A DNA stretch of 64,000 nucleotides from Bdellovibrionota bacterium (GCA_050950765.1 JBMNIF010000003.1:416001-480000), one strand, 5' to 3'. Positions 5,741-58,545 are shown, numbered from the stretch's first letter. The notes: generated by a model from the sequence alone, not told the origin. Numbers and translations: made by a program.

Positions 5741-7080
5741 TTTGACCACCCTTCAGAGACGGCAGGACGGGCTGCAACTTGCAGAGCGAATCGGTTAGAT
5801 CTCTACGAAGGTTAAAAATTTGGTGCCACCCACCAGTGCTAAAAGCCTTTAAAATTACAATAGTTAATAATATCAATATATTAGCAAAAGCTTAAAATCT
5901 GGCAGTTTTGGTGCCACCCTTCTTTTTTGCCGCTTTGACGGCTTGGGCGACTGGATAAATTTGGTGCCACCCACCACTTTAAAGAGATCTGGCTGGGCTT
6001 GGAACTGGTGCCACCCTTCAGGGACGCCCTACAGGACGCTTGAACGGGCTGCAACTTGCAGAGCAAAGTCGGCTAGATCTTATGGGGGTTAAAAATTTGG
6101 TGCCACCCACCAGTGCTAAAAGCCTTTAAAATTACAATAGTTAATAATATCAATATATTAGCAAAAGCTTAAAATCTGGCAGTTTTGGTGCCACCCACCA
6201 CTTTAAAGATGCTTAGTTTTGGTGCCACCCACCAGTAACAGCACCACCCTTCTATGGGGGTAAAAATTTGGTGCCACCCACCAGTGCTAAAAGCCTTTAA
6301 AATTACAACAGTTAATAATATCAATATATTAGCAAAAGCTTAAAATCTGGCAGTTTTGGTGCCACCCTTCTTTTTTGCCGCTTTGACGGCTTGGGAGGTC
6401 AAAATTTGGTGCCACCCACCAGTAAAAGTGGGTGTCCTAATTGGCGGCTAATAATATCAGTATGTTAGCAAAAGTTAGAATTTGAACTGCAAATCGAATC
6501 GGCTAGATCTGGACGGGGGTTAAAAAACTGGTGCCACCCACCAGTTAAAAGTGGGTGTCCTAATTGGCGGCTAATAATATCAGGATGTTAGTAAAAGCTT
6601 AGGTCTTGGCAGTTTTGGCAGCATTTTGGTGCCACCCTTCAAGGACAACCGAACGGGCTGCAACTGCGGGGCGAAGTCGGCTAGTCTACGGAGGTTAAAA
6701 ATTTGGTGCCACCCACCAGTGCAGAATCTTGGAGGTTAAAAATTTGGTGCCACCCACCAGTGCAGAATCTTGGCTTAAAAGGATGAAGTCTTTAAAATCA
6801 ATATGTTAGCACCTAACTAAAGATGCTTAGTTTTGGTGCCACCCTTCTATGACAATTGAACGGGGTGATACTGCAAAACGAACTGGCTAGATTTCTACGG
6901 AGGTAAAAGGTGGGTGTCCTAATTGGAAGCTAAGGACGATCGAGCGAGCTGATACTAAAAAACGAGTTAGCTAGATCTAGACGGAGGTCAAAAAATTTGG
7001 TGCCACCCTTTAGGGACGACTGAACGGGCTGATACTGCAAAGCGGGATCAGCTAGGTCTCTACGGAGGTCAAAAATTTGA
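5741..7080 (+). repeat. Modular intergenic repeat array 1 (GGTGCCACCC core)
   Basis: 16 exact cores counted at 5822, 5910, 5963, 6007, 6099, 6187, 6221, 6270, 6358, 6408, 6530, 6628, 6705, 6746, 6835 and 6999, plus degenerate ones. Secondary motif GTGGGTGTCCTAATTGG occurs 3 times. Lies between convergent genes. Confidence 0.95.
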
Positions 7081-7084
7081 AAGG

Positions 7085-9730
7085 TTATGTGATAGGGGTA
7101 ATTGACATTTTATTACAGCTGGAGCCATCTGAAAAAATAAGTTCTATGGTTTCTTCTTTCATAGTAGCTGCAATTGGATGGAATCCGTGCCACCCTAACT
7201 CTGAAAGTTGTGTTAGCGCCCCCTCTATTTTGAAGTTTTTCACTTCACCTTGAGGCGAAATTTGATGGACAAAGATCCCGTAATGTTCATCAAAACTTAA
7301 AAAAACATTTTCCTGAATCTTCGCCATAAAAGGAGTAGACTGTTCCTTACTCCCCTTCATTAAAGTTTTTGGAGTGTAGCCTTCGCCATCAATAACATCA
7401 TCTATATCAAAGAGGAAAAGTTTACCTCTCCCAGTTCCGACAATAAATTTTTTATTAGAAATATCAGAAATAAAAACTATATCGGGCAGTGCTGTTACTA
7501 TGGATTGCACATTAACTAATTTCCTAGTTTCTCTCTCCATTTCAAATACACTCACCACTCCGTTGGAAGATGCAAGGAGTAAAAAATCTCCCACCATGCC
7601 GATAGAAACAGGCTCTCCCTGTGGCTCTGCCACATATTTAGAATAAAAGTTATCTTTTTTACACTTTACATTAAAATAATCTAAACACACGTAATTGCCT
7701 CTGATAGAAATAACATAAGGATCAACCATCCTACCGGAAAAGCAATTTAAAGCGTGAACTCTACATCTGGTAGTGTCGCCTTCAGCAGTTTTATCTTTAG
7801 CAGCTTCATCTTTAGCAGCTTCATCTTCAATACTTTTACTTGTTGCAATTTTTAGATAGTTAGAAACCTTTTCTTTTGATTTTTCTTCTGATTTTTGAGC
7901 ACATAAGTGAAGTCTCCCCTCATCATCTCCTACTATTACAAAACCACCTTCGATATCCACAAACCCTGTAATTGAGGTGACACCTTCACAGTTAAAGATG
8001 CCTTCTTCACATTTAAGATCACAAACAAGACTTTCTGCTGCAAAGTCTGAATTCAGAACTCCTACTGCACAATCTGAAAAAAGATCTTCTCCTTCTTCAA
8101 AAAGCTCTTCTTGGAAAGTAAGAAAATCTTTGGGAATTTTGATGGACCCATCGTCTTCTTCTGTGGCATCAAACTCCCGTTCGCCTTTTCCTGCGGCACC
8201 CCTAGATCTTTTAGGGATCCTTTTACCTCTTCTTTTATCAGCAGGATCTTTAATATCTTTTTTTATTACAGAAGGCTCTTCCTTACTACCCTTACTATTT
8301 ATAACTTTCTTGACCTTTCTGGTCTCTTTTAGTTCTGCAGGCTCTTTCTCACTATTTGTAACTTTCTTGACCTCTCTGGTTCCTCTTAGTTCTGCGGGGT
8401 TTTGTAAGTATTTTTTCAAGACCTTAGCATCACTTTTTTCAATCACGAAAAACTTTTCTTTTGATTTTTCAGTACAACGTTCATATACATTAAACAAGAC
8501 CTTACCATTAAGGAGGAATCTACATCCCACACGACTAAGCGCTTTATCTTTTAATGAATTATCTTTTAATGAAGCAACAAACTCATCAAAAGTTTTTTCT
8601 AAGACGGGATCCTTTTCACTGAAAAAATTCTCATATTTAAGAGGGACTTCATCCTTCGCCTTTGGTAATAAAATTTTACGTTCAGTCAGTAGATCTTCAA
8701 ATTTAGCTTTATCTCCTTTTTTGATAGCATAAACAGCGATAGAACCGGATCGTCTTAGAAAACAAGTGACCTCTTTGCCTGATTCAGATTTTAAGGTAAT
8801 CTCCTTATCATCCTCCCCAAAAAGTTTAGCTAAGGGATTATTTTTAGTCGATGCGGTACTCCCATATATAATACGCTCCGTTTTTTTATCGAGAGGGATG
8901 ATATAATTCTTATACTTTGCACTTAAATATTCCTTTAACGTTGAAATATGCTCTAAATTTGCTGCAAAAACGGTGCGCGCATGAGCTTTACGCATAAAAA
9001 ACGGAATTTTAAACTCCCTCCCGTTAATTGTTTCTACAAATGTCCAGTGGTCTTTTTCAGGATCAGCCTTAACTATTTTGTCTAATTTTTTGCAAAGAGT
9101 GGTTATATATTTGATACTCTCACCAATAACAACTCTTTTTTTTTGTAATCCCTTACCACTGATAGCGAATTCACCTTTTTTATTCAAAAATTGGGCTTCT
9201 CTTCCATGAGGATGTTTAGTAGATAAATACTCTTTCAAGGTTTTAAGATCTTCTTTTTTAATAGCTGGAACTACTCTAGCTCCATTTTGTCTGATAAAAA
9301 TAGGGATCTCAAACTCCTCACCATTGATAACACCGTGAAAAGCGACCTCCTTTATCCCCGCTCTAAAACATTCTTTATAAAAATCTTTATTACTGACATC
9401 TTCTAGATCATACCCTTGTTGCTTTGCGCTATTCTGAAAAGATTCTCTTATTTCTTTTAAAAACTCCTTAATGACAGGTGTGTCATAAGAACCAAGTGTA
9501 GACAAACTGTTTTGACTAATGGAGAGCTCATTATCTAGATCTAATTTTTCAATATTTTTACGGCTTTTTTTGATTTCAGATAAAGGGTCATTAATTTCGA
9601 ACGGAACTCCAGTCTTAAATGGAGTGTTAAGACCATTCTGTGCAGAATTTGATTCACAATTTGATCCCTGCGCACGATTTGATAATCCCTGCGCAGGATT
9701 TGATTCACTATTTCGCCTTACTCCAAACAT
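7085..9730 (-). CDS. Hypothetical 881-aa protein: N-terminal repeated basic domains, charged linker, probable C-terminal beta-propeller
   Basis: Long ORF with internal repeats. The C-terminus has propeller-like blades (FVIVGDDEGRLHL, LLLASSNGVVSVF, FIVGTGRGKLFLFD). Confidence 0.65.
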   Translation of the reverse strand: MFGVRRNSESNPAQGLSNRAQGSNCESNSAQNGLNTPFKTGVPFEINDPLSEIKKSRKNIEKLDLDNELSISQNSLSTLGSYDTPVIKEFLKEIRESFQNSAKQQGYDLEDVSNKDFYKECFRAGIKEVAFHGVINGEEFEIPIFIRQNGARVVPAIKKEDLKTLKEYLSTKHPHGREAQFLNKKGEFAISGKGLQKKRVVIGESIKYITTLCKKLDKIVKADPEKDHWTFVETINGREFKIPFFMRKAHARTVFAANLEHISTLKEYLSAKYKNYIIPLDKKTERIIYGSTASTKNNPLAKLFGEDDKEITLKSESGKEVTCFLRRSGSIAVYAIKKGDKAKFEDLLTERKILLPKAKDEVPLKYENFFSEKDPVLEKTFDEFVASLKDNSLKDKALSRVGCRFLLNGKVLFNVYERCTEKSKEKFFVIEKSDAKVLKKYLQNPAELRGTREVKKVTNSEKEPAELKETRKVKKVINSKGSKEEPSVIKKDIKDPADKRRGKRIPKRSRGAAGKGEREFDATEEDDGSIKIPKDFLTFQEELFEEGEDLFSDCAVGVLNSDFAAESLVCDLKCEEGIFNCEGVTSITGFVDIEGGFVIVGDDEGRLHLCAQKSEEKSKEKVSNYLKIATSKSIEDEAAKDEAAKDKTAEGDTTRCRVHALNCFSGRMVDPYVISIRGNYVCLDYFNVKCKKDNFYSKYVAEPQGEPVSIGMVGDFLLLASSNGVVSVFEMERETRKLVNVQSIVTALPDIVFISDISNKKFIVGTGRGKLFLFDIDDVIDGEGYTPKTLMKGSKEQSTPFMAKIQENVFLSFDEHYGIFVHQISPQGEVKNFKIEGALTQLSELGWHGFHPIAATMKEETIELIFSDGSSCNKMSITPIT

Positions 9731-10880: not shown

Positions 10881-10883
10881 AAA

Positions 10884-15620: not shown

Positions 15621-17441
15621 CTATGCTATCCAATGGTCATTAGAATCAAGTGTCTTTACCTTTCTAGTTGAAGCAGGAGCTTCACTATTCTCTCTTTTTG
15701 AAGCAGCTAACGGATCTCTTTCACCCTTATCTTGTTGAGTCTGCTGCTGCATCGTCCCTTCAAATGTTCCTTCATCTGAAGCGACAGACACACTTACCTG
15801 ATCAACATTAATCCCTAAATTCCTTAGGATCTGTTGCAGTTCAGGGGCTCTCTCTCTTAAAGCCTGATTAACAGCGGCATTATCCGCCACTAATCTAGCG
15901 TGTAAGTTACCATCCCTTAATGTCACATCGACCTTCAAAGTTCCCAATTCTTCTGGATCGAGTTTAATTGAAATAGTCTTGCCATCCTTTGAACGTGAAA
16001 TCTCTTTCAAAGCATCTTCAACTCGTGCCAACATGCTACTTGTTTGAGAGCGTGTCAGCATCTTTGTATTTTTCGTATTTTCAGAATCTCTATTTGTTTG
16101 CGTGTTATTATCAGCGGCATCAGAGACGACAGCAGAAACTCCTTGCACCGTTGTATTTTGTGTTGCTTGTTGTGTAGCAACAGCCACACTCTCAGATATC
16201 ACTTCAGCTGCGCTTAAGTTTGCATTTGAAAGGTATTGCGATTGCCAGATCTGCCCATAACTTGAAAAGATATTAACCTGTGTATCAGAAGCGATATCAG
16301 GTGTTGAATATTCAGATACATCTGAAACATTCTCTACTTTATCTTGCAAGATCTTAGCGATTAAATCTTCCTCAGTTTTTGTATTTTTAAAGGTTTGTTG
16401 AGGATCTAACTCCACATCCTCTTCTGCAATAACTTCAGCACTTACTGTTTTCGGAGTAGAAACTTTTACGACTTCTTCTTCAATTGATTTTACGATATCT
16501 TCGGAAGCAACGTTTGTTATTTTCTGATCTAAAACTTCTCCTTCAGAAAGATCCTCCATAGGATACTCTCCAAAATCTAAAGGCTCATCTAAGTTTTCTT
16601 TAAGAGTTTCTTCTTTTACAACCGCCTCTTGATCTGTTTTTAACGGCGCTGCTGTAAGTGGAATATCAGCTCCGTCTGAAGGTATCACAGCAGTTTCATC
16701 TGAAATTGTAGCAACACTTTTATCTAAAATAGCGACACCCTCTTCATCTGGAAGTATCGCAGCAGTTTCAGGGGTGAGACTTTCTTCAATATCTTCACTG
16801 GATTCTTTTACAACCGCCTCTTGATCTGTTTTTAACGGCGCTGCTGTAAGTGGAATATCAGCTCCGTCTGAAGGTATCACAGCAGTTTCATCTGAAATTG
16901 TAGCAACACTTTTATCTAAAATAGCGACACCCTCTTCATCTGGAAGTATCGCAGCAGTTTCAGGGGTGAGACTTTCTTCAATATCTTCACTGGATTCTTT
17001 TGCAACAACCTCTTTTACAGGCATATCCTCTGTCACAGGGGCTGCAACTACGTCACCTTCTAGCTTAACGTCTTTTTCTGGTGTTGCATTTAAAGTCTGA
17101 TCCTTTGATTCGTCTTCTTTTGAAGGTACCTTTTCGGCATTATCTTTTTTAGCCACGTTTTTTTGTGGCGTTTCGACGGTTGTTATTGATTTAGAATTTT
17201 TATCAGGATCTTTTACCTTCTGTTTTTTGTTCTGTTTTTTAGTTATCCCTTCAATTTTAACTCCTTTTTCTATCTCTCCGCAGCCGATTCCGGCAACTTG
17301 TAGGGCAATTTTGTCCAGTAGGGAGGAAAATTCATCCATCAATTCTTTATTACTTTTTTTCTTCGTCTCTGCATCGGCAGCAAATGCAGGTTGCTGTATT
17401 TGCATGTCAAATTGAGCATTAACTTCGATTCCCACTGTCAT
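15621..17441 (-). CDS. fliK: Flagellar hook-length control protein
   Basis: Acidic, low-complexity N-terminus; C-terminal T3S4 domain IKLDPEELGTLKVDV...L.E..PEL...L...G; directly upstream of flgD-flgE. Confidence 0.9.
   Translation of the reverse strand: MTVGIEVNAQFDMQIQQPAFAADAETKKKSNKELMDEFSSLLDKIALQVAGIGCGEIEKGVKIEGITKKQNKKQKVKDPDKNSKSITTVETPQKNVAKKDNAEKVPSKEDESKDQTLNATPEKDVKLEGDVVAAPVTEDMPVKEVVAKESSEDIEESLTPETAAILPDEEGVAILDKSVATISDETAVIPSDGADIPLTAAPLKTDQEAVVKESSEDIEESLTPETAAILPDEEGVAILDKSVATISDETAVIPSDGADIPLTAAPLKTDQEAVVKEETLKENLDEPLDFGEYPMEDLSEGEVLDQKITNVASEDIVKSIEEEVVKVSTPKTVSAEVIAEEDVELDPQQTFKNTKTEEDLIAKILQDKVENVSDVSEYSTPDIASDTQVNIFSSYGQIWQSQYLSNANLSAAEVISESVAVATQQATQNTTVQGVSAVVSDAADNNTQTNRDSENTKNTKMLTRSQTSSMLARVEDALKEISRSKDGKTISIKLDPEELGTLKVDVTLRDGNLHARLVADNAAVNQALRERAPELQQILRNLGINVDQVSVSVASDEGTFEGTMQQQTQQDKGERDPLAASKRENSEAPASTRKVKTLDSNDHWIA
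16611..17001. repeat. Exact in-frame 192-bp (64-aa) tandem duplication within fliK
   Basis: ACCGCCTCTTGATCTG at 16621 and 16813; peptide KESSEDIEE...DQEAVV occurs twice. Confidence 0.95.
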
Positions 17442-46132: not shown

Positions 46133-48463
46133 TTAAGCACTTGCCTTTTTCTGACTCGCCAACTCTAACGCCATCTGCTTTGCTTTCCTTAAATCTAATT
46201 TACCACTTCCCAGAAGCGGCATCTCTTCCACCCTATAATAATCCTCCGGCTTCGGAATCCACAAGTTCGGCAAACCGTGCTCCGACATTAACTTTGAAAG
46301 GTGTCTCGGATCAATCTCATCTAGCAGATGTAATACTACTAGGCGCTCTCCTCTCTTACCATCAGGCACACCAGTCACAACACAAACTCGTTCAGACTTA
46401 TCAAGCAACTCATGAAAAAGCTCTTCTGCTTTAATATGCGGCACCATTTCACCAGCAATCTTACTAAAACGACTTAAACGATCCGTTATTTTAATAAAGC
46501 CTTCATCATCACACATCGCGATATCGCCCGTGCAATACCAAGAGTCTTTCATTACCTCGCGCGTCAAATCTTCCCTACCCAAATACCCCATCATTACATT
46601 AGAGCCTTTAATGTATAGAAGCCCTTCCTGATTAGCTTCAAGCTCCTCTCCCGTATCTACATCTAAAATCTTAGCTGCTATCTGCGGCATTGGTCTACCA
46701 ACTGTGCCTTCTTTATAGCCGAGCTGTCCTTTCCAATATCCAGAAACATCTTTTAAATTTACGGAAACTACCGGTGAGAGTTCTGTGCAACCGTAACCTT
46801 CATGAATATTAATCCCGAATTTATCGTAAAAATCGACAGCCACACCTTTCTTTAACTTTTCAGCGCCAGCGATCGCTAAGCGCAGATACGAAAACTGTTC
46901 CTTAGTACATTTTTTAGTATACGCAGCAAAGAAAGTAGGCGTTCCAACGATTAAAGTCACCTTATGATCTTCCATAGCTTGTCCAATGGTGCTCGCATCA
47001 AAGGGACTGAAATGATAAACGACTTTAGCTCCAGATAATAGCGGCAACCACAAACAGACTGTAAAGCCAAATGAATGAAAAAACGGCAAGATGCCTATTA
47101 ATGTATCCTTACGCCCGATATGCAAAGAAGCTAAAAAACTCTCAATATCAGAAGCGATATTATCATGTGACAACATCACGCCTTTGGGTTCGCCTGTACT
47201 ACCACTTGAGAAAACTAAGGTTGCCAAATCATATCTCGACGGCTTTTCCGTTAGATAAAGTTTCTTAATCAGAAACTGCGGCATCAGCAAAGCGATAGAG
47301 ACATGTTTCAATTTCTCCCAAGTAGACAGCCCTCCTAAAAGATCTTCTAAAAAGAGCATTGAAGGGAGCGCCTGCTTATTAAGTTTTTCTAAAAATTTTT
47401 TAGAGGTGACAATCGTCTGCATCCCCGTTTGCTTTTCTACTGAAAGTAAAAATTTATCAGAAGCTGTATAATTTAAATTAACAGGTATTTTTCCTATGAA
47501 ATACAGGGCGATATTGATCAACACGGCCTCTACGGAAGGTGGCAACATAATCCCGACAAATTTAGATTCAGATGGTGGAATAGTCTGCTTTAAAATCTTT
47601 GCAGAGAGTAATGACATCCCTAGCACCTGCATATAATTCAAACTACGTCCTGTGGCGTTCGCCATCGCCTTGCGAAAAGGAGCTCGCTTGGCAGTCCTCA
47701 AAAAAGCTAAGTGCAATACCTGAAAAACTTCTTTTTTATACGGTGCAACATCAGCTCCCAATTCCTGAACGATACGACGTATTTTATAGGCACTACACTC
47801 TTCTTTAATGGGTTCTCCAAAAGCCACTGTCATCGGATACGGCAACTCTTTTGGCATATTGCAATGAAACTTTCCTTCAAAGAAAACCCAGTTTGTCCCC
47901 CAAACGCGATCAATATAAACAGGAATTATCGGAGCATTGCTTTCTCGTCTGATACGGTTAAAGCCGGTTGTAAATGACAACATCGTACCGACTCGTTGCA
48001 CATGTCCTTCAGCAAAGATAACGACTAATTCTCCGTTTTTTACAGCGTCTGCGGCCATATCTAAAGCTCGTACGCTATCTCTATTACATTTTGCTGGGAT
48101 CGGAATCGCCTTGACAGCTTTCGCTATAGGTTTTACGAACCATGTGTTATAAATCGCATCATACACCAAAAAACGAACAGGTCTGTTCATAGAAGCGGAT
48201 AGAATCAACGGGTCTAAGTAAGAAACATGATTACAAACAAGGATTGCTCCGCCATCTTTCGGAATGTTTTCAAGACCTATAATTTTTAACTTATAAACGA
48301 TCCTGATAATAAATCGGGTCAACGCCAAGATCGTACGTTGCGGAGCAATAACAGCGCATAACACCACTATCAAAGTTATTATTAAAAGTGTCTGTAATAG
48401 AATTCCTAATTTTAATAAAAGTAGGAGTAGTGCAAGGGGAAGTAGAAGTATAATTATAGTCAT
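46133..48463 (-). CDS. aas: Aas-like lysophospholipid acyltransferase / acyl-ACP synthetase (copy B)
   Basis: NHVSYLD, FAEG, FSSGSTGEPKGV, EGYGCTE, GSGKLD; collinear paralog of copy A. Confidence 0.88.
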   Translation of the reverse strand: MTIIILLLPLALLLLLLKLGILLQTLLIITLIVVLCAVIAPQRTILALTRFIIRIVYKLKIIGLENIPKDGGAILVCNHVSYLDPLILSASMNRPVRFLVYDAIYNTWFVKPIAKAVKAIPIPAKCNRDSVRALDMAADAVKNGELVVIFAEGHVQRVGTMLSFTTGFNRIRRESNAPIIPVYIDRVWGTNWVFFEGKFHCNMPKELPYPMTVAFGEPIKEECSAYKIRRIVQELGADVAPYKKEVFQVLHLAFLRTAKRAPFRKAMANATGRSLNYMQVLGMSLLSAKILKQTIPPSESKFVGIMLPPSVEAVLINIALYFIGKIPVNLNYTASDKFLLSVEKQTGMQTIVTSKKFLEKLNKQALPSMLFLEDLLGGLSTWEKLKHVSIALLMPQFLIKKLYLTEKPSRYDLATLVFSSGSTGEPKGVMLSHDNIASDIESFLASLHIGRKDTLIGILPFFHSFGFTVCLWLPLLSGAKVVYHFSPFDASTIGQAMEDHKVTLIVGTPTFFAAYTKKCTKEQFSYLRLAIAGAEKLKKGVAVDFYDKFGINIHEGYGCTELSPVVSVNLKDVSGYWKGQLGYKEGTVGRPMPQIAAKILDVDTGEELEANQEGLLYIKGSNVMMGYLGREDLTREVMKDSWYCTGDIAMCDDEGFIKITDRLSRFSKIAGEMVPHIKAEELFHELLDKSERVCVVTGVPDGKRGERLVVLHLLDEIDPRHLSKLMSEHGLPNLWIPKPEDYYRVEEMPLLGSGKLDLRKAKQMALELASQKKASA

Positions 48464-48748
48464 AGGACAATACTAAAGATAAAAAAACCACACATACCTT
48501 TGAGCTGATATCAGATCAATTCATCTTTAAAAAAGTTCTAAATAAAAAATCCAAATAAAACAGAGCATCTCGCCTTCAAAATAACCCCAGCAGATAATTG
48601 AAGGACATACAAGCTAGCGGCTATTATATTGATTAACGAGATCCTTAATTCTATCTATCTTATTTCGCTTTAAACCTAAACTCCCCCGAAATTATACAAG
48701 GGTGATATTTTTATTCACAAACTCCCTTGAAATTATACGAGAGGGAGT

Positions 48749-50356
48749 TTATTTATTTTTTGCAAACAATGTCCTGACAAAATCTCCTTCATCCATATCA
48801 AACAAAGTGAGTATATCTTTTTGTTTTCTAGAAAGAGGTGCCATGAGTTTCGTTTCTCTATCGTTATAATTTACTTTTCTTACTTTCCTCATTTCATTGA
48901 GAAGTTTTTTCGTTGAGGAAACCGGCTTTTTACTTTCTGTTCCCAAATGATTACATAAATCTGCTTGCAAGATTTGAGCTAAAAAGCCTATGAAGAACTT
49001 TCCTTGCGTACTTTGGTCGTTGTGGGTTCTGAATCTTGAGAAATCAATATTGTTTTTCATGCTGTCATAATTTTTTTCAATTCGATCTCTTTGTCTATAC
49101 AGGGTTAAAACTTCTTCCCAACTCAATGCTTCCACATTGGTTAAAATCCCGAACATGCCTAAGATCTTCCAGCTTTCAGTAATTGCTGTAAGATCTTTTT
49201 CATAGCTTTTCAAGATTTCATTTTCTACTTCGGTATTGAAATAGGAGAGGCGTTTCTTTCTTTTCTTTTTCCCTAAGGATTTCGTCAAAGCCTCTTCATC
49301 TCGTTTTAATTTTGCTCCAAAAATCACTTCTTCATCTCTGGCTTTTTCCGTGTTGAAATATGAGCACGCATAGAGCCGATGTCCCTCTATGTCAACTTCT
49401 TTTTTATGCCCATAGCATTCCAATTCGACTGAATAGTTCTCAGCTGAACGTATATGATCCGCTTCGTTGAGTAAAATTGCTTCATAGATGTTTTGGCTAC
49501 TTGGAAAAGCTATGATAAATTGAATGCCTCCATCTCCGTGAAGCAAGTCTAAGTTGTTGCTTGTGATAAATCCTCGATCCATAATGAAGATAACGGAACT
49601 TAAGCCAAACTCCTTGGCTAAGTTGAGCATTGACCCAATATGAACCTTGTCGGGAATTGACCCATCATAAAGTTCATAGCATAAGGGTAAATTCAACTTT
49701 TGTGAATAAAGCAAACCGACGTTGATTTGCTCTAATTTTTCATGGTCTCGATTGTAGCCCATCTGAGCAAATTCAAGATTTTCACTATATGTGGAAATGC
49801 TTGTAACGTCATAAGCGACTACATCGTTTTTCGTTTTATTCAAGTCGATCCATGTTTTAAAAAACTCCCAAATTTTCTCCTTGGAAATCCATTGATACAC
49901 TTCGTTCAAATGTTTTTCGGATACAAAGCAATCAAAAGGCAGATCCGAAGATTCGTAAAAATCATCCAGATACATCATCACATTTCCTTCACAAACCATG
50001 TAAAAAGCTGTTGTCAGAAGTTTTTGATAATCCTCCGGAAATACTTCTTTAAGAGCTTTTGTTAATTGCAACTCCTCAGCTCTCTCATTGAGCAGGTGAG
50101 TATGACCTGAATCTAAAAACTTATTCACATTTTTTTCTCTTGGATGCGGCAGGTTAAACAAATCAAAATAATGGTCATTAGGAAACATAGTTTTCGGTTC
50201 TTCTTCGTTTAATCTTCCGATCGCCTTATCTCTATGTGACCAATTTCCATTTTTTGTCTGGTAATGCTCGTAAATGTAGTAGACATAGCGATGGTTTCCT
50301 GATTTTTTGATAGAGGTTTTTTGTGGAACATCAACTGTATTTTTATAAATTGCCAT
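48749..50356 (-). CDS. IS1634-family DDE transposase
   Basis: YDVTS, GYNRD, G...D, MDRGF..N, Y..R..IE....K; likely start is ATG at 50356. Confidence 0.9.
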   Translation of the reverse strand: MAIYKNTVDVPQKTSIKKSGNHRYVYYIYEHYQTKNGNWSHRDKAIGRLNEEEPKTMFPNDHYFDLFNLPHPREKNVNKFLDSGHTHLLNERAEELQLTKALKEVFPEDYQKLLTTAFYMVCEGNVMMYLDDFYESSDLPFDCFVSEKHLNEVYQWISKEKIWEFFKTWIDLNKTKNDVVAYDVTSISTYSENLEFAQMGYNRDHEKLEQINVGLLYSQKLNLPLCYELYDGSIPDKVHIGSMLNLAKEFGLSSVIFIMDRGFITSNNLDLLHGDGGIQFIIAFPSSQNIYEAILLNEADHIRSAENYSVELECYGHKKEVDIEGHRLYACSYFNTEKARDEEVIFGAKLKRDEEALTKSLGKKKRKKRLSYFNTEVENEILKSYEKDLTAITESWKILGMFGILTNVEALSWEEVLTLYRQRDRIEKNYDSMKNNIDFSRFRTHNDQSTQGKFFIGFLAQILQADLCNHLGTESKKPVSSTKKLLNEMRKVRKVNYNDRETKLMAPLSRKQKDILTLFDMDEGDFVRTLFAKNK

Positions 50357-50419
50357 ATCAATCACCCTTGTATATATTATACACAATAGGGAGGAAAATA
50401 TCAAGAGAGTTTTTTAAAA

Positions 50420-50465
50420 AAATATCGCATAAAAGCTCGTAAAAATGAGCGTTTATGCGATATTT
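50420..50465. other. Long inverted repeat inside the IS, upstream of the transposase
   Basis: AATATCGCATAAA-AGCTC...GAGC-G-TTTATGCGATATT. Confidence 0.6.
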
Positions 50466-50737
50466 GAGTCGCTAATAATAGCTACAGTGTATAAAAAACG
50501 GGGATTTTAGGTTTAAAATGCAGATCATCGAAAAACCACACGACAAAAAGCTTCAGATCTTTATTAAAAAAGCTCTAAAAAGTCGAAGCTTCTTATAACT
50601 GAAACTTTATTTGATAGTAACCCTTGCAATCCCCTAAGATGATTTTTAGCGACTGTCTAAAAAGATCTGTTGAGATAATATCTTGAAATAACTAATTTTT
50701 TCTAAATATTCAAATTAGAGCAACCATTCTTCCAAAG

Positions 50738-51072
50738 GTGGCACCGCCACCCTTCAGGGACAACTGAACGGGGTGATACTAAAAAATAAGTCAACTAGAT
50801 TACGACGGAGGTTAAGAGTGGGTGTCCTAATTGGAGAGCGAGATCGGTTAGGTTTCGACGGAGGTTAAAAATTTGGTGCCACCCTTCAGTGCTAAAAGAC
50901 TCTAAAATTGCAATAGTTAGTAATATCAGTATGTTAGTAAAAGCTCAGAATTCGGCAGTTTTGGTGCCACCCAACAGAGGGGAGCCGCCACCCACTAGGG
51001 ACAATTGAACGGGGTGATACTGCAAAACGAACTGGTTAGATTTCTACGGAGGTTAAAAGGTGGGTGTCCTAA
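50738..51072 (+). repeat. Modular repeat array 3
   Basis: Cores at 50875 and 50963 (88 bp apart), degenerate cores near 50745 and 50985, GTGGGTGTCCT at 50818 and 51060. Confidence 0.9.
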
Positions 51073-51113
51073 AAAGAAGAAAGTATCTACACTCGGGGGT
51101 CAGGAGGTCGACA

Positions 51114-52229
51114 ATGAATCAAAAAATACGTGCAGTTATTATGTGTGGAGGATCGGGGACCCGCCTTGCCCCACTTACAACAGAAACCCCCAAACAATTT
51201 TTACCGTTATCAGATCCACACGCTAGCATGATTCAACTTACTGCTAAGCGCATCCAACCCCTTATCACAGATGCTCTTACGGTTGTAACGAACGCCAAGC
51301 AAGCACACTGGGTTAAGGAGCAACTTCCACAAGCACAGATCATTCTTGAGCCTGAGCCGCGTAACACTGCACCAGCCATAGGGTTAACTGCGCTCTATAT
51401 GGATCCTGATGATGTCATGTTAGTTTTTCCGGCAGATCATATCTTTGCTAATGAGGAGATCTTGCGTGAACGTTTAGGTTATGCCGCAACCCTTGCCGCA
51501 TCAAACGACCTACTTGTGACATTGGGAATGCTTCCGACACATCCGCACACAGGCTTGGGGCATATTGAGAGGTCTGTTGCCATAGACAATTCACGCGCAA
51601 GCTACCGAGTGGCTCGCTTTGTTGAAAAACCTCCTTACGAAAAAGCCAAAGAGTACACCGAATCAGGGAGGTACTATTGGAATGGCGGGATGTTTGCTTG
51701 GCGCGTTGGGTTCTTTTTAGAACGCATGGCTCTTTGCGCTAAAGATCTCTACGCAGGTTTAATGCAGATTAAAGAATCTAAGTTAAGCCCTGATGTCATC
51801 GCAGAAATTTTCCCTCGTCTTCCGAAAATTTCTGTTGATTACGCCATCCTTGAGAAAAGTGCGGAATATACTGCCGTTATTGAGTGCAAAGATTTAGGTT
51901 GGAACGATTTAGGTGACTGGTCTGTACTTGGAGCGATCTGGGATAAAGATTCAAACGGTAATGCCATTAGAGGATCCGTCACTGTATCCGACTGTTCTAA
52001 TTGTGTTATGTGCAATCAAGGGCTAGGAGATCTTTCGGTATCAGGTTTACACGATGCCGTCATAGTCAAAGCACAAAACAGACTCCTGATCTCTCCGCGC
52101 AAAAGCACTCAACTTGTTGGCAAAACTGCTGAGACCTTTGCTTCCTGCACTGACACGGTCATAAACTTAGGAGTACCAAATATCTCGATAACGCAAAAAG
52201 ACAAGCGATGGATTATCGCTGCTAACTAA
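51114..52229 (+). CDS. manC: Mannose-1-phosphate guanylyltransferase (no C-terminal cupin isomerase domain)
   Basis: GGSGTRLAPL...PKQF, EP..RNTAPA, PADH, FVEKP, WN.GMF, ISVDYA.LEK, GWNDLG.W; AGGAGG RBS before ATG 51114. Confidence 0.9.
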   Translation: MNQKIRAVIMCGGSGTRLAPLTTETPKQFLPLSDPHASMIQLTAKRIQPLITDALTVVTNAKQAHWVKEQLPQAQIILEPEPRNTAPAIGLTALYMDPDDVMLVFPADHIFANEEILRERLGYAATLAASNDLLVTLGMLPTHPHTGLGHIERSVAIDNSRASYRVARFVEKPPYEKAKEYTESGRYYWNGGMFAWRVGFFLERMALCAKDLYAGLMQIKESKLSPDVIAEIFPRLPKISVDYAILEKSAEYTAVIECKDLGWNDLGDWSVLGAIWDKDSNGNAIRGSVTVSDCSNCVMCNQGLGDLSVSGLHDAVIVKAQNRLLISPRKSTQLVGKTAETFASCTDTVINLGVPNISITQKDKRWIIAAN

Positions 52230-52307
52230 AACGGCACTGTGTATAATTCTTAGTTATTAGCGTAAGATGCCTTTTTATTTTTCGTTTGAGGTCGAACAAT
52301 AGGTACT

Positions 52308-53684
52308 ATGAGATATCTTAAATCTTTTTTAGAATCACCCCAAAAGATATTTTTGTTACTCGCAACTGTTTTCGGCATACTGACCATCTCTTTTACCTCT
52401 CCATTCAAGGTCCCTGATGAAGCTGCGCACTTTATTAGAGCGTATGAAGTTTCTGAAGGTGTTTTTTTACCGACCATTCAAAATAATCTGACAGTTGCGC
52501 TATTACCAAAGCAATTAAAAGAGACTCTCGATGTCGTAGACAAGTTCGCTTTTTCAAATAGTAAAATAACTTTACAAGACTTAAATCCGAACGGTGCAAA
52601 AATTGATTATTCCGATAAAGTCTTAGTACGTTCTGCCACAGGGCAATACTCACCGTTTCCATACATAGTAACCGCCACATCCCTAAAAGTAGTTCGAGTT
52701 TTTAGCGATAACCCACTTACACTGTATTTTTGCGGTAAGATCATGGCGCTACTCTCTTGGACGACAATGATTTTTCTAGCGATAAAAATCATTCCTTTCG
52801 GCAGATGGTTAATGCTTTTATTAGCGCTCCTTCCGATACATCTATTTTTAGCACCTTCATTTTCAGCTGATTCCGCGATTAATAGCGCTACTTTTTTATT
52901 GATAGCCATTGTTCTGCAGCTACACTACTCAAAAGATACCGTTAAATATCTCCGTTTAAAGTTATGTACCGTTGTGTTCTTATTACTTTCAATTTGTCTT
53001 TCAAAAACAGTTTACATCTTTTTACTACCACTTTTATTTCTTATACCAGCAAGATATTTTCACAATCGCACCCGTTATTTTATATACGGCGGCTCCACCT
53101 TATTATTAGTCATAGGCGCTCACCTTTTCTGGTTTAATTATATTCACGGACTACATGAAGAGCGCGTAGCAAATGTTTTTCCAAAGGAGCAATTAGCATT
53201 TATTCTAAGCGATCCATCTGAATTTTTAAAAATTATGCTCACTTCAGCGAAAGACAATTTCTCCGGATATATCTGCTCTTTTATCGGAATTTTAGGCTGG
53301 CTGGATATCCACCTCTCAGCTTGGATTTACTGTACTTATCCCGTAGTATTACTTTCAAGTTTATTTTTTACGGATAAAAAAGAGATCTCCATACACTACT
53401 CCCTTAGATTATTATCACTAATCATTTTTTTGATAGGCGCGCTAATTATCGCCGTTGCTTTATATTGCACATGGAATCCACTTCGCAGCCCTGTCTTAAA
53501 CGGCATTCAAGGACGTTACTTTATATCATTTTCTCTCTTGGGAGCTCTCCCATTTTTTGCGCTGCCACACCTACACTACTATTGCAAACGGCAATGGGTC
53601 TTAGGTGCTTTTATAATGCTCTATCTCAATTTTGTCTGGGTCTGTGTGGAGGTAATTTTAAAAAGTAGCTACTTGTATTACTAA
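52308..53684 (+). CDS. DUF2142-like polytopic membrane protein (probable GT-C fold)
   Basis: P...PDE..HF.RAY, YSP..Y, S.D, G.LGWLD, GIQGRYF. Confidence 0.8.
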   Translation: MRYLKSFLESPQKIFLLLATVFGILTISFTSPFKVPDEAAHFIRAYEVSEGVFLPTIQNNLTVALLPKQLKETLDVVDKFAFSNSKITLQDLNPNGAKIDYSDKVLVRSATGQYSPFPYIVTATSLKVVRVFSDNPLTLYFCGKIMALLSWTTMIFLAIKIIPFGRWLMLLLALLPIHLFLAPSFSADSAINSATFLLIAIVLQLHYSKDTVKYLRLKLCTVVFLLLSICLSKTVYIFLLPLLFLIPARYFHNRTRYFIYGGSTLLLVIGAHLFWFNYIHGLHEERVANVFPKEQLAFILSDPSEFLKIMLTSAKDNFSGYICSFIGILGWLDIHLSAWIYCTYPVVLLSSLFFTDKKEISIHYSLRLLSLIIFLIGALIIAVALYCTWNPLRSPVLNGIQGRYFISFSLLGALPFFALPHLHYYCKRQWVLGAFIMLYLNFVWVCVEVILKSSYLYY

Positions 53685-53849
53685 GTTGTGCCTGCCCCAT
53701 TCAGAAAATATTTACCTCTAAGAAAAGACTTCTTTTCAATTATTTTCTAAATAGTATCTGGGATACTGTTTAGAAAAAAGATAATTTATACTATAAATCT
53801 AGATGAACTACTGAACCGACAATATATCTATTTTAAACAAAGGTTGATT

Positions 53850-54242
53850 ATGAAGCATATTTTCTCGTTAATACTTCTCTGTTTGACAGCATGTTCAATG
53901 ACTCCTGGTTATTCCTGTGAAAACGAACCACAAAGCACCATTCCAGTTTACGCTCACGGCTCAATTATAAAAGAGGTAAATGGTGTAAAAGTTAGTGCGT
54001 GGAGTCGCGGTGTTTTACTTGTTCCTGGTGAGAACACTTTATTGATAAAAGTTGATCCAACTAATTACAACAGCCTTGCTCCGCAAAATACCATCTACGA
54101 ATTGGAGATGACTGCCGTAGAGGGAAAGGAATATATTGTAACAAGTAAAACCGGTATCGGTCAGATCTGTGCTTGGGAACGTAATAGAATAACAGGTCAG
54201 CCGGATTATTCTGCTAATGCTGGCTGCGTTAAACGCCGATAG
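53850..54242 (+). CDS. Small lipoprotein, function unknown
   Basis: MKHIFSLILLCLTAC lipobox; ATG at 53850. Confidence 0.7.
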   Translation: MKHIFSLILLCLTACSMTPGYSCENEPQSTIPVYAHGSIIKEVNGVKVSAWSRGVLLVPGENTLLIKVDPTNYNSLAPQNTIYELEMTAVEGKEYIVTSKTGIGQICAWERNRITGQPDYSANAGCVKRR

Positions 54243-54484
54243 GGACTATCGGTGAAATCTAAAATTAGTACGTCTTATACGCGACATGATAATTTAGCAG
54301 GAAAATATTTTTTTTATGTTGCGCTATAAGCGTTTAACTGATGGAAGTGACAGCAGATACGCCATCTGTCGAGATTACATTAACCTTTGATTTTTCATTT
54401 TTACAGTAAGTTAGGAGCAAGTCATCTCGTTCACTAGATGCCACACTAGCGAGGAGGTTTTTTTGCTATCCCAATTAGAGGAAC

Positions 54485-55294
54485 ATGATTTATCGTATTC
54501 TGGAAAATATATTTATACTTTGTATAATTTCTGTGGTTTTTTTAGGTGTTTGGGCATTTTATATAGAACCAAATATGCTCGCAGTTACAAACTACAAGAT
54601 CAAAGATAAAAATTTAAAAGGGATAAAAATTGTTTTAGCTGGTGATTTCCATGTTGCACCTAATCAAGAAAAACGTTTACAGAAAACAGTCCAAAAAATA
54701 AATGATCAAAAACCTGATCTAATCTTATTAGTTGGTGATTTTGTATCGGGGCATGAACGAAAAATGACTCTGTCTGCTGAGGCTATTGCAAAAAATCTTG
54801 CTAATTTAAAGGCAGAGTATGGAGTCTATTCAGTTTTAGGAAATCACGATTGGTGGATAGATGGAGAGGAGGTAACACAAGAGTTAAAGAAAGTAGGGAT
54901 AAATGTTCTCGCAGATTCAAACATGACCGTAAAGATTAATGACAAAGTAGTTTACATTGCAGGTGTTGAAGATCTATCGACAAGGAATTCAGATATTCAT
55001 TCTGCACTGAAGGGAACAAAAGATCCAACGATTTTATTATCACATTCACCTGATATCTTTCCAGAAGTTCCAGCAGGTGTAAATTTAACTGTGGCAGGGC
55101 ATCTTCACGGTGGGCAAATTCGATTTCCATTTATAGGATTTTTATTTATACCGTCAAAATATGGCGAAAGGTATATTTATGGATTATTTGAAGAGAACGA
55201 TAAAAAAATGATCGTTACAAAAGGTGTAGGTAACAGCATTCTGCCATTCCGCTTTAATTGCAAACCTGAAATTGTAGTGATTGATTTTGAATAG
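54485..55294 (+). CDS. Membrane-anchored metallophosphoesterase (YkuE/YaeI-like)
   Basis: GDFH, GDFV, GNHD, LSHSPD, GHLHGGQ. Confidence 0.92.
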   Translation: MIYRILENIFILCIISVVFLGVWAFYIEPNMLAVTNYKIKDKNLKGIKIVLAGDFHVAPNQEKRLQKTVQKINDQKPDLILLVGDFVSGHERKMTLSAEAIAKNLANLKAEYGVYSVLGNHDWWIDGEEVTQELKKVGINVLADSNMTVKINDKVVYIAGVEDLSTRNSDIHSALKGTKDPTILLSHSPDIFPEVPAGVNLTVAGHLHGGQIRFPFIGFLFIPSKYGERYIYGLFEENDKKMIVTKGVGNSILPFRFNCKPEIVVIDFE

Positions 55295-55303
55295 GACTTG
55301 TCA

Positions 55304-55506
55304 TTGGTGCCACCCACCAGTACGACCTGCCATTTCGCAGCAGCGGTTTTTGATTTTGATGATTTTTATAAAGAAAATGGTGTTGATGCTCTGTCAACAC
55401 AGGGCGCAGAGCAGATATAATCACTTTGTGGGTGGCACCAGTTTTACCCCCGTAAAAACCTAGCCGATCCGCTTTGCAGTTCCAGCCCGCCCTAGCGTCC
55501 TTGAAT
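55304..55506. repeat. Repeat cluster 4: two cores in opposite orientation
   Basis: GGTGCCACCCACCAG at 55306 (+) and GGGTGGCACC at 55430 (-), the latter followed by a reverse C-type module. Confidence 0.85.
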
Positions 55507-55540
55507 CCTTTTCAATTTTATAAGCATCTAAAATTTAGCT

Positions 55541-55567
55541 TTAGTTTTATTACCGTTCTGCCGAATA
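55541..55567 (+). promoter_or_regulatory. Possible sigma28-like promoter upstream of the flagellin-like gene
   Basis: TTAG-N15-GCCGAATA, about 125 bp upstream of the ATG. Confidence 0.4.
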
Positions 55568-55691
55568 CATTAGCAAGGGAGAGCTCTTGTATTAGGGAAG
55601 TACAAAAAGAGAGCGCACGGATGCAAAACTTTTTATATAAAAACAGCTATCAACTCAAAGCCTCCATACTTAACTGTGACGGAGGTCTGCC

Positions 55692-57680
55692 ATGAGTACA
55701 ACTATCGGAAGCGTTATTACAGGTTCTTTCATTAACCTTTTTGGAAAATCCACTTCTAAATCTAAACTTTCTCTAAGCCCCCTTAGTTCAGGCGACAACA
55801 AAAAAGATGCAGTTGATTTTTCTACAAATCTAAGAAGCGGAGCTTCCGTTTATAGTAGAGCTATTAAAACCATCTCTTCAGGCGCTGGATATATCAACTT
55901 AGCTAAAGATACCTTGACTAAATTAAGTGATATCACAGACAAACTCATCACATTGGCAGAAAAAGCCACAAAAACTAGCGGAACAACCTCATTACGCAAG
56001 TTAAATCGCTCTTTCCAAGATCTCGCTGACGAATTTAACGATCTAGTAGATAATGCAGATTTTGGCGATCGTGAATATTTAACCATAGAAGGGCTAGAAC
56101 AACTCTTCACTGACATCGGACTCTCTACCAAAAATTCACGCGACTTAGCCACTTTATTTGACAACTTTATTATTGCAAATAAAGACTCTGACAAAACTCT
56201 CGCTAGTGAAATGATGAAACAAAAAAAACCGAGTCAGATACCATCAACTGCCTTTAGCAGCACTATTAATAAACCTTACGAAACACACCTTGCTCAAAGT
56301 ACAACAACATCCGATCCAAACATAACAAACAGCGCCGGATTTATTTCTTCCGTAAATACGGTGACACAACGAAATAACGCAACAGACCCCACCATTACAG
56401 AAATCACTTTCACCTCTGCAGAAACAGCTTCAGAAAACACACTTCAATACTCAGCAGGGACTACTTTAAAAACCATTTCACAATCTTCAGGCTACTCCGT
56501 AATTGAATCTACAGACGATCTAATTCTTGGTCAGAATACTTCCAACTATAAACAACTTTTCCTAATAGATGCTTCAGGAACGGTGCTGCACCAACTCACT
56601 AACATGACAGAATCAGTTTCCTTCGGTGAGGTTGCTATCAGCGACACTAATGACACTATTTACAGTTATGCTAATGCTACCACTACATCAGTGGTAAAAA
56701 GCTCTTTTTTAACAGCAGGCTCCGACCCTGCTACAAATATTGAAACAGATATAGAAAGCACCTCTTTAAGCTCTGATTTAAGTCTCTTTGACAATATAAA
56801 GATCAGTGCGGACGGTAGCTATTTAGCTTATCGTTCAAATACAAGCGGAACTTGGAAAACTCACCTCAAAGATTCTGAAACATTAACTTCTGATACAACC
56901 TTAGAAAATAACTCAGATATAACAAATTTCGGATTTATTGCTAACGATACACTAGCTCTGATTCAAGGCGTAGCAGGCAATCAAACGATCTCTTATTACA
57001 AAGATGGTTCAGACAATTTAAAAACAGTAGCGAGCGCCTTAAATATCGGACACTTTTCTACTGTGCAAGCAGATACAAGCAAAAAAAGCTTCATCTCATA
57101 TACCAGTAATGACATCTCGAGTTATAACGATCTCTACGTCATTGATGAAAAAGGCAATAACATTACTACCTATGATTTTGAAGCGAGTGATAATATCAGC
57201 AACTTCAGCATTGCAAGTAATGAAAACGGACTACCACGAATCGGGCTCTTCGGAACCCTCTCTGTAAATGGTGATACAGACTCAGAGATGTATCAAATAG
57301 ATATTTCAGGAGGACCTAAAAACATTAAATACACTACTAATGTTTCAAGACCTTTAAAAATATTTAGCAGCACATTTAGTTTATCTAACCGCGCCTCTGG
57401 TTACGTTGCTCTTGATGATCTAAAAGCTATAAAAAAACAGATCACAGAAAACCTTGAAAATCTCGATAAGATCCTAGATGTAATGCAAGAAAACGTTGAC
57501 CTCGTTCGCGCCACAGGCTTAGCTATGTTAGAAGTTGCAAACAAGATCACAAGCTACGATGATGCCGAAAGTGTTGCCAAATCACTCCGCTTGGAGATCT
57601 TAAAAACAGCTCCAACCCTACTTAACCAAGTCCACAACTTGGAACCTTTAGCATCAGCAGCCCTGCTTTACGAAGACTAA
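55692..57680 (+). CDS. Highly divergent flagellin-like protein with a large Ser/Thr-rich, beta-rich central insertion
   Basis: N-terminal LAKDTLTKLSDITDKLITLAEKA...FQDLADEFNDLVDNADFGDREYL and C-terminal ALDDLKAIKKQI...ANKITSYDDAESVAKSLRLEIL follow the helical pattern of flagellin N- and C-terminal domains. Confidence 0.6.
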   Translation: MSTTIGSVITGSFINLFGKSTSKSKLSLSPLSSGDNKKDAVDFSTNLRSGASVYSRAIKTISSGAGYINLAKDTLTKLSDITDKLITLAEKATKTSGTTSLRKLNRSFQDLADEFNDLVDNADFGDREYLTIEGLEQLFTDIGLSTKNSRDLATLFDNFIIANKDSDKTLASEMMKQKKPSQIPSTAFSSTINKPYETHLAQSTTTSDPNITNSAGFISSVNTVTQRNNATDPTITEITFTSAETASENTLQYSAGTTLKTISQSSGYSVIESTDDLILGQNTSNYKQLFLIDASGTVLHQLTNMTESVSFGEVAISDTNDTIYSYANATTTSVVKSSFLTAGSDPATNIETDIESTSLSSDLSLFDNIKISADGSYLAYRSNTSGTWKTHLKDSETLTSDTTLENNSDITNFGFIANDTLALIQGVAGNQTISYYKDGSDNLKTVASALNIGHFSTVQADTSKKSFISYTSNDISSYNDLYVIDEKGNNITTYDFEASDNISNFSIASNENGLPRIGLFGTLSVNGDTDSEMYQIDISGGPKNIKYTTNVSRPLKIFSSTFSLSNRASGYVALDDLKAIKKQITENLENLDKILDVMQENVDLVRATGLAMLEVANKITSYDDAESVAKSLRLEILKTAPTLLNQVHNLEPLASAALLYED

Positions 57681-57764
57681 AAACCTGACTTCCAAATACC
57701 AATTTAAGGCATCCACTTTTAGGTTAAATTCCATTTTCCCCTAATGTCTTGATATTATTAACAC

Positions 57765-58545
57765 CCCTGAAGGGTGGCACCAAATTTTTGACCTCGCTTT
57801 GCAGTTGCAGCCCGTCCTGCTGCCCTGAAGGGTGGCACTAAATTCAAGCCCAGCTAAATCTGCTAGATCTGCTCAAACTGGTGGGTGGCACCAGTTTTTT
57901 GACCCTCGCTGCTTCTTACTGGTGGGTGGCACCAAAACTGCCAAATTCTAAGTTTTTACTAACATCTTGATATTATTAGCTATTGTAATTTTGGAGTCTT
58001 TTAGCACTAAAGGGTGGCACCAAATTTTTAACCCCCGTAGAAATCTAGCTAACTCGCTCTGCAGTTGCAGCCCGTTCTGCTGTCACTAAAGGGTGGCACT
58101 AAATTCAAGCCCAGCTAAATCTGCTAGATCTGCTCAAACTGGTGGGTGGCACCAGTTTTTTGACCCTCGCTGCTTCTTACTGGTGGGTGGCACCAAATTT
58201 TTAACCTCCTAGATCTGCCCAAACTGGTGGGTGGCACTAAATTCAAGCCCAGCTAAATCTGCTAGATCTGCCCAAACTGGTGGGTGGCACTAAATTTTTA
58301 ACCTTCGTAGAAATCTAGCTAACTCGCTTTGCAGTTGCAGCCCGTCCTATTGTCCCTAAAGGGTGGCACCAAAACTGTCAAATTCTAAGTTTTTACTAAC
58401 ATCTTGATATTATTAGCTATTGTAATTTTAGAGTCTTTTAGCACTGAAGGGTGGCACCAAATTTTTAACCCCCGTAGAGACCTAACCGATCCCGCTCTGC
58501 AAGTTGCAGCCCGTCCTGCTGTCACTAAAGGGTGATACAAATTCA
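57765..58545 (-). repeat. Modular repeat array 5 (reverse orientation)
   Basis: 12 cores counted (8 GGGTGGCACC, 4 GGGTGGCACT) between 57772 and 58449; 88-bp module at 57924 and 58361; between convergent genes. Confidence 0.95.

Follow-up and report, generated by a model that had tools for sequence, protein, structure and literature searches.

The window analysed here is a stretch of 64,000 nucleotides from a Bdellovibrionota bacterium (C3:416001-480000 in a genome of 2.64 Mb, 5 contigs and 94% completeness). It contains five intergenic arrays in which a constant 10-bp core, (T)GGTGCCACCC, alternates with modules of variable length, and which are probably the products of an element encoding a Y1/HUH transposase. 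A core search at <=1 mismatch gave 55 matches in the window versus 0.84 expected from shuffles. Fifty cores lie in the five loci, 46 exact and 4 of the form AGTGCCACCC, in agreement with the roughly 50 given by a sequence-only reading of the window that preceded this analysis. The four variants are all found in array 5. Boxes resembling the IHF consensus were called with WATCAANNNNTTR, which we take to be that consensus. The features are the following.

Array 1, 5741 to 7080, plus strand: 16 exact co-oriented cores.
Array 2, 42222 to 43710, plus strand: 18 exact cores.
Array 3, 50738 to 51072, plus strand: 2 exact cores, and partial cores with 79-bp-type, D-type and A modules.
Array 4, 55304 to 55506, no strand: inward-facing cores at 55306 and 55430.
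Array 5, 57765 to 58545, minus strand: 8 exact cores and 4 of the form AGTGCCACCC, all co-oriented on that strand.
IHF-consensus-like box in module A, 5871 to 5883, plus strand; another at 42576-42588 in module E.

Array 1 starts with a partial core (CCACCC at 5746) and a 79-bp-type module, ends in a module tail and is flanked by the convergent open reading frames (ORFs) 1887-5729(+) and 7085-9730(-). Array 2, between the convergent ORFs 40893-42188(+) and 43763-46075(-), consists mostly of recent multi-module block duplications, with a 299-bp unit at 42501-43040 (97% match) and a 201-bp unit at 42820-43241 (99%); an excess of terminators was looked for in this array and none was found. The final module of array 5, which lies between the convergent ORFs 55692-57680(+) and 58547-59842(-), is truncated near 57741. 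The location of the three big arrays between convergent genes was thus as first described. The same holds for the co-orientation of the cores (arrays 1, 2, 3 and 5, array 4 being an inward pair) and for every module position and length that had been listed: A of 88 bp is present six times, E of 89 bp five times, B of 53 bp five times and D of 59 bp three times. Copies of a module are 0-3 nt apart within one array and 4-14 nt apart between arrays. Rfam gave no match in the window. For part of the window the assembly was confirmed independently: overlapping contigs from the public run X2 tile 43640-57760 with <=1 differing letter. This tiling includes arrays 3 and 4 and, for array 2, its right edge alone; it does not reach arrays 1 and 5. 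In each of four runs array 3 was covered ~20-30x as deeply as its flanks, which is what a genome-wide repeat should give.

Counted over the whole genome, as had also been proposed, the exact core occurs 967 times in 141 clusters. Co-oriented runs of at least two cores number 115 and span 67 kb; the footprint of the word is 78.7 kb or 3.0% of the genome, and the arrays take up 2.5-3% of the 2.64 Mb. The geometry is predominantly direct, with 893 direct core-to-core modules versus 19 inward and 5 outward core pairs, and the inter-core sequences, 19-423 bp long, are recurrent. According to a crude ORF caller, arrays are present in 34/324 convergent, 47/1308 tandem and 14/322 divergent gaps, which amounts to an enrichment in convergent gaps (34/324 versus 61/1630 others, p 3e-6); 64 of the 967 cores fall inside crude ORFs, many of which are short frames over arrays. 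Only 2 exact cores were found in C2 500-800 kb around dnaA. Zones nearly without exact cores (G000:C2:500000-800000, centred on dnaA; C3:1-100000 and 600000-708979) still hold some arrays of 79-bp modules with eroded cores, and 46 such orphan stretches were detected. The bias of arrays between leading and lagging strand was not significant (57 versus 44, p 0.23, in a tally by eye).

Six intact genes for a Y1/HUH transposase (PF01797), each encoding 322 aa, are present in the genome, all outside the window and the nearest at ~205 kb on the same contig. An exact core lies within 300 bp on both sides of 6/6 of these genes versus 25/1959 ORFs, and in other multicopy insertion sequence (IS) sets cores on both sides were found for 2/11, 0/9, 0/5 and 2/5 copies. 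The outer cores of all six Y1 copies face inward on both sides, and the arrays point inward from both ends. At the left end one additional inverted core is situated 45-46 bp inside, and in five of the six copies that end itself contains an IHF-like box. Read on one strand, the gene sits like a module between two co-oriented cores. The arrays at the right end consist of truncated copies of the element stacked head-to-tail, which match 413, 248, 65 and 25 nt of its end. Modules that adjoin Y1 genes at different loci belong to one subtype (3.3 differences/28 nt versus 7.5-8.8 otherwise), which suggests that the gene moves together with its adjoining modules. The gene copies are 0-14 nt apart over 969 nt; 15/18 polymorphic sites are synonymous and five of the six proteins are identical. 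The enzyme is apparently active in this genome. These observations favour the proposal of the sequence-only reading that the arrays are a mosaic mobile-repeat family whose core would be the site of an enzyme encoded elsewhere; a RAYT-like Y1/HUH gene flanked by the same modules, one of the candidates it had named, was found in these six copies. At G000:C1:385350-385560 a left-end-like inverted core pair and a flanking array occur with no Y1 gene behind them, possibly as the remnant of a lost copy.

The Y1 protein contains the motifs NHFH (60-63), W100, YIYINP (121-126) and SS at 142-143, and H61, H63, Y121, N125 and P126 are invariant in 15 homologs. The second His is separated from Y121 by 58 residues and a 55-aa core insertion is lacking. 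The best solved relative, by sequence (E 5.6e-7) as well as by fold (E 5.2e-7, root mean square deviation 2.6; predicted local distance difference test score of the model 88.5), is TnpA-REP 4ER8 of E. coli. NCBIfam NF047646 (REP-associated tyrosine transposase, REP standing for repetitive extragenic palindrome) scored 67.4 bits (E 1.2e-18), under its curated cut-off of 80 bits, and NF033573 18.3 bits versus a cut-off of 55. A Pfam search at E<=0.01 returned PF01797 only, with no C-terminal helix-turn-helix (HTH) and a tail of ~180 aa without Pfam match. Among the query and its closest homologs (P0001-P0016), 15/16 proteins occur only on contigs of 0.9-2.3 kb, little more than the length of the gene, which would be expected if repeats on either side interrupt assemblies.

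Array 4 of the window combines both types of end of this element. Its core at 55306 is followed by 15 nt identical to the right end of the Y1 transposon, its core at 55430 bears on the outer side the Y1-associated subtype of the 79-bp module, and its interior of ~100 bp is also present at two other sites in the genome; the fold of the locus has a z of -5.8. Array 4 is read as a derivative of the Y1 element: it looks like a miniature inverted-repeat transposable element (MITE), resembling a copy that was internally replaced.

The modules are more diverse than a small library that is shuffled. Forty families present in at least three arrays contain 529 of the 880 modules, so this part of the original description stands, but 771 modules are distinct and 170 of the 279 clusters are singletons. 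Differences in module order between arrays, which had been noticed as well, are present and reflect largely local block duplication. Pairs of 79-bp modules differing by <=2 nt make up 34% within arrays versus 0.1% between arrays, and a near-identical copy was found in the same array for 272/876 modules and in another array for 112/876; blocks such as a 32+111-bp pair are also present at distant loci. The main 79-bp family has ~440 copies, of which 220/436 are preceded by a full core and about half by a partial one. Modules are themselves composed of shared sub-segments. In the 79-bp family, after removal of near-duplicates (84/118 sequences kept), 29/69 non-core columns have two common alleles, all four combinations were found in 386/406 column pairs in a four-gamete test, and r2 decreases from 0.165 at 1-2 bp to ~0.03 beyond 5 bp. 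This indicates that the family recombines along its whole length and not only at cores. The tail of a module and the head of the next are independent across the core (p 0.27) and about as independent within modules (p 0.10), and breakpoints and array ends are ragged, without a dinucleotide rule at the junctions. The suggested role of the core as a privileged crossover site is therefore not sustained. Module bodies differ by ~25% while the core is exact in 967 copies, which suggests continued selection for recognition. IHF-like boxes are found in 109/775 distinct modules on the core strand; the opposite strand has them in 4, and shuffles give a mean of 1.6. The 79-bp module folds worse than shuffles (z +2.0 and +1.0); in predicted folds of single modules two direct cores pair together on one strand. 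GTGG occurs on the reverse strand of the core, followed by a stem of at least 5 bp in only 93/967 cases (shuffled 48).

Homologs of the Y1 protein were detected in 55/60 relatives, and where a record with a relative of the enzyme is named, its label is Bdellovibrionota, Oligoflexia, Deltaproteobacteria or Proteobacteria. Once two duplicates and two partial loci had been excluded, 45 homolog loci were taken into an analysis of flanks, which were long enough at 41; some of the loci are close kin. Inverted repeats scoring >=12 flank 19/41 loci versus 4% of mismatched pairs; many of them start with TGGTGC- or TGGTAC-like words, and at locus L022 the terminal inverted repeats (TIRs) fit GGGGWSAS. 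A repeated 12-mer occurs in the near flank of 28/41 loci versus 4/27 distal windows. The identical core forms an inward-facing pair at Y1 homologs of only 27-30% identity in the genomes G025 (two loci) and G111. Reiteration of the core beside a Y1 homolog was seen in G111 and in G072, the copies in the latter being tandem and upstream. The genome G019 (1.8 Mb, 92% complete) has 51 cores, many as MITE-like inward pairs ~75-165 bp apart, and short tandem runs.

A metagenome scan for two direct cores gave at least 120 loci. Among the matches listed (120 loci), 69 have at least three cores and 26 at least three different spacings; some of these loci probably represent coding sequence or GC-rich repeats that arose by chance. 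Of 30 loci inspected, many are mosaic arrays with modules unrelated to those of this genome. At L102 and L129 the cores point towards a Y1 gene with motifs like those of TnpA-Y1 subclass 2.3 (tandem cores at L102:31-113 beside the gene at 347-1450; L129:6-161 and 751-1513). One metagenome array adjoins a DUF1559 gene, a family typical of Planctomycetota. Conspecific arrays were sought in metagenome contigs and none was found, the five blastn matches (in 4/120 listed loci) lying outside arrays. No Y1 relative was confirmed in viral contigs, and none was present in 41 viral loci with tandem cores. Twelve viral contigs (L219, L221, L226, L229, L231, L236, L237, L244, L248, L250, L252 and L258) have in common that the 10-mer occurs twice in direct orientation, at a distance of 34-37 bp and within a conserved non-coding frame; these paired cores probably belong to an operator or promoter of phages and have no connection with the arrays.

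On this evidence the core is probably the TIR of a Y1/HUH element of ~1.4 kb, the enzyme of which would amplify the arrays by nicking and joining. A RAYT-like, TIRYT-type single-strand nuclease-ligase would bind the core on single-stranded DNA and nick on both sides of it, at sites that are loosely defined. If the 3'-OH inside one core were joined to the 5'-phosphotyrosine end outside a core, one unit more would result, made up of a core, an inner piece and an outer piece, after the amplification model for bacterial interspersed mosaic elements (BIMEs) in PMC3333891. The same chemistry might excise blocks of modules, or the gene with its adjoining modules, and re-insert them at new intergenic sites, so that nicking near cores and strand transfer would account for units being added or moved. 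With a near-palindromic core, two direct cores could pair on one strand in a 9-bp stem with one mismatch; direct repeats may so mimic an inverted pair of ends, and any module would become a substrate. The mosaic alleles would then be the product of frequent recombination, with hundreds of copies taking part.

Several observations weigh against this reading. Activity of the enzyme is deduced here from sequence, and tandem duplication as well as gene conversion are feasible by host proteins alone. No precise cut site emerged from junction profiles, a method that confounds indels with breakpoints, and no empty-site or reordered alleles were seen in four sequencing runs, in which joints inside arrays are uninterpretable as modules from other loci map there. 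Array enrichment within 10 kb is 4.5-fold for the Y1 copies versus 3.9-fold for one DDE IS set, copies of which partly neighbour Y1 copies, so that this test is weak. The contrast in repeated 12-mers at the homolog loci is favoured by distal control windows that are probably mostly coding. An 11-nt core pattern reached a highest count of 37 among 123 other genomes of the phylum versus 948 here, a count that covers this core word alone while most homologs use other TIR words. The enzyme family alone is insufficient to explain the scale, since homologs are present in 55/60 relatives and yet there are <=37 matches elsewhere. Alignment gave no Y1 match in G019, in a genome 92% complete, and a Y1 gene is visible at 2/120 metagenome loci among the matches listed, each of <=3 kb.

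The available data do not separate the Y1-driven reading well from one in which the Y1 element deposits its ends only, as solo TIRs and MITEs, and slippage, RecA-type unequal exchange and gene conversion build the arrays. This possibility, which we consider somewhat unlikely, is in keeping with exact block duplications of the kind expected from homology-driven host recombination, with linkage at background within ~5 bp and with ragged junctions without a dinucleotide rule; the 46 orphan stretches of 79-bp modules that persist with eroded cores, and the cores of G019 without a detected enzyme, fit it equally. It has more difficulty with the first tandem copy at a lone end, which needs no long homology, and with tandem copies of ends at Y1 ends in unrelated genomes that have different end words. 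Blocks such as the 32+111-bp pair at distant loci, and an exact core amid divergent bodies that suggests selection for recognition, also weigh against it.

That the arrays are host-selected elements for chromosome structure or expression, with a binding protein of their own, and that the Y1 element merely inserts into them, appears very unlikely. The strand-polarised IHF-like boxes and the three HU/IHF-family genes in the genome would agree with such a function, yet the boxes may derive from element ends, as 5/6 Y1 left ends carry one. The convergent-gap enrichment and the near absence of cores around dnaA would equally result from purifying selection on insertions, and array 2 is without the terminator excess. 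The Y1 gene is indeed module-like between co-oriented cores on one strand, but its adjacent modules are one subtype and no random sample, and in genomes that lack arrays the core serves as the TIR of homologs. Shufflon-like recombination by a tyrosine or serine recombinase at the cores, or assembly driven by IS110 or a reverse transcriptase, is highly improbable and already largely refuted. The constant quasi-palindromic 10-bp site and the independence of tail and next head across it would suit such a process; however, such independence is found to about the same degree within modules, the sites are direct, non-coding and at >100 loci, PF00239, PF02371 and PF00078 (serine recombinase, IS110 and reverse transcriptase) had no match in the 94%-complete genome, and the three tyrosine recombinases found are all 3-35 kb from any core. 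The candidate enzymes of the sequence-only reading other than the Y1 gene, and its analogy with shufflons, are left without a fitting recombinase beside the cores. An assembly artefact is least probable of all, for although near-identical block copy numbers in the interiors of large arrays could be off in an uncultured assembly, there are 771 distinct module sequences, another study's contigs contain the edge of array 2 as well as the junctions of arrays 3 and 4, and the depth over array 3 is that of a genome-wide repeat in four runs.

The Y1-driven reading can be extended to a distinct and widespread class of HUH-driven head-to-tail elements, a generalization that we regard as doubtful. Direct cores would pair as a pseudo-inverted end, so that any module, the transposase gene or captured host DNA could be copied, and freely recombining modules would come to fill several percent of a small chromosome. 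The 10-bp word would be common to two distant Y1 clades (2.1-like here, 2.3-like at L102 and L129), with unrelated arrays in many taxa, and the host may keep modules with IHF boxes as architecture.

Other mobile elements lie within or near the arrays. At 48749-50404 (-) the window encodes an IS4/IS1634-like DDE transposase (PF01609) in one of ~11 copies of a 1827-bp element; two copies elsewhere are inside core arrays, and coverage of the window copy was patchy in run X8. An element of 1574 bp, present twice inside arrays, was rejected as their builder: it is a DDE IS that inserts at TTAA and hence a passenger. It has short inverted ends and is found at L214:637-2210 (G000:C2:811836-813409) and at four other sites, two of the five copies being inside modules, which supply the TTAA. 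Elsewhere in the window, a 192-bp tandem repeat (16611-17014; 2.1 copies, 98%) lies inside the FliK hook-length gene, and two tandem paralog pairs, of DUF7657/DUF7654 proteins and acyltransferase-AMP-ligase fusions, are situated at 17795-21899 and 43763-48463.

The origin and spread of REP-like repeats is still an open question in the field. In this genome an enzyme that is apparently active occurs with a defined 10-bp end word, with end copies that were truncated naturally and with hundreds of products, so that its recognition site, its rule of cutting and the step of amplification can be tested directly. The findings also suggest that enzymes of the TIR-associated group 1 type are not always domesticated single-copy genes, and that hairpin-free tandem arrays escape REP-finding methods and short-read assembly.

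The sequence-only reading recognised no known kind of element in these arrays. A Y1 gene with TIRs and cognate clusters of repeats is, however, what has been named a TIRtron, a RAYT-like Y1 gene flanked by TIRs (PMC3733652, Di Nocera et al. 2013); TIRYT has been equated with TnpA-Y1 subclass 2.1 (PMC6006769, Quentin et al. 2018) and with Bertels group 1 RAYTs (PMC5581495). Judged from its sequence, the element described here falls within the operational TIRtron definition of PMC3733652. It shares with TIRtrons a protein with an HUH motif and a catalytic tyrosine, TIRs instead of GTAG REPs, and TIR words that form a dispersed repeat family in dimers and clusters. The motif GGGGWSAS, reported for some TIRs and not for all (PMC3733652), fits 0/967 cores, and the arrays are head-to-tail mosaics, unlike the published TIRtrons. 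The TIR families there are called 'moderately abundant' and the flanking 16-mers of group 1 average 12 copies (PMC5581495), whereas 967 cores are present here. The duplication rate of group 1, about 6%, exceeds that of all other true RAYTs (PMC5581495); six copies at >=98.5% identity here compare with a subclass mean of 1.9 copies at 49% identity (PMC6006769). The protein resembles subclass 2.1 in its NH[YF]H, Y[IV]HLNP-like and SS motifs and in having no 55-aa core insertion (PMC6006769). It has no C-terminal HTH such as that of the TIRYT examples (Bac_DnaA_C, HTH_23 or HTH_28; PMC6006769), and as both this tail and the GGGGWSAS motif are lacking it was not filed in subclass 2.1. In PMC6006769 no REP-like repeats are reported for subclasses 2.1 and 2.3, whereas L102 and L129 have tandem cores beside a 2.3-like Y1 gene. 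A literature search for the core word found no paper on it among the matches listed; the figures and supplements of PMC3733652 and PMC6006769 that list TIRs were outside this search and could contain it. Among the papers searched, no biochemical study of the TIR-associated (group 1) Y1 branch was found.

REP/BIME systems (PMC3333891, PMC8266576) are similar in their intergenic mosaic arrays of high copy number, in tandem units that vary from one locus to another and are conserved within each, in chimeric linkers, some with an IHF site, and in being targets into which other IS insert. For BIMEs a two-step process has been proposed, in which a Y1 enzyme with loose cleavage sites would bring about diversification and local amplification (PMC3333891, Ton-Hoang et al. 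2012). The arrays differ from them in that a conserved hairpin with a GT[AG]G foot is missing and the inverted doublet is not the unit. Repeat coverage is ~3% of the genome versus ~1% for REP/BIME in E. coli, and REPtrons are reported not to transpose as a unit, whereas the Y1 gene here is found in six contexts with flanking modules. The REPINs of Pseudomonas fluorescens SBW25 (PMC3116915, Bertels and Rainey 2011) likewise comprise about a thousand short repeats with a cluster beside each RAYT gene, and include some ordered tandem arrays, among them directly repeated REPs. In SBW25 the doublet hairpin is what replicates, and tandem arrays, with their fixed spacing, are in the minority; the genome analysed here has tandem, recombining modules of variable length as the rule, and its inward pairs number 19. 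With IS200/IS605 the element has in common the HUH/Y1 fold and several near-identical copies per genome. It differs in YxxxNP instead of YxxxQ, in a length of 322 aa, about twice that of IS200/IS605, in inverted end words instead of distinct subterminal hairpins, and in the lack of tnpB between the ends.

Two further systems were compared and rejected. A shufflon would have a site-specific recombinase beside inverted sites that flank coding cassettes, which is not the case here, and a CRISPR array has repeats of 24-48 bp with unique, even spacers, whereas the core is 10 bp long, its spacing of 19-423 bp is recurrent and Rfam gave no match. Judged by all these comparisons, the arrays most likely represent a known system of enzyme plus repeats in an extreme, head-to-tail form. 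The kind of element that mostly explains them, TIRtron- or REP/BIME-like, is already known; what is unusual is the scale, the head-to-tail build without hairpins, the intact enzyme in multiple copies and the reuse of one end word across taxa.

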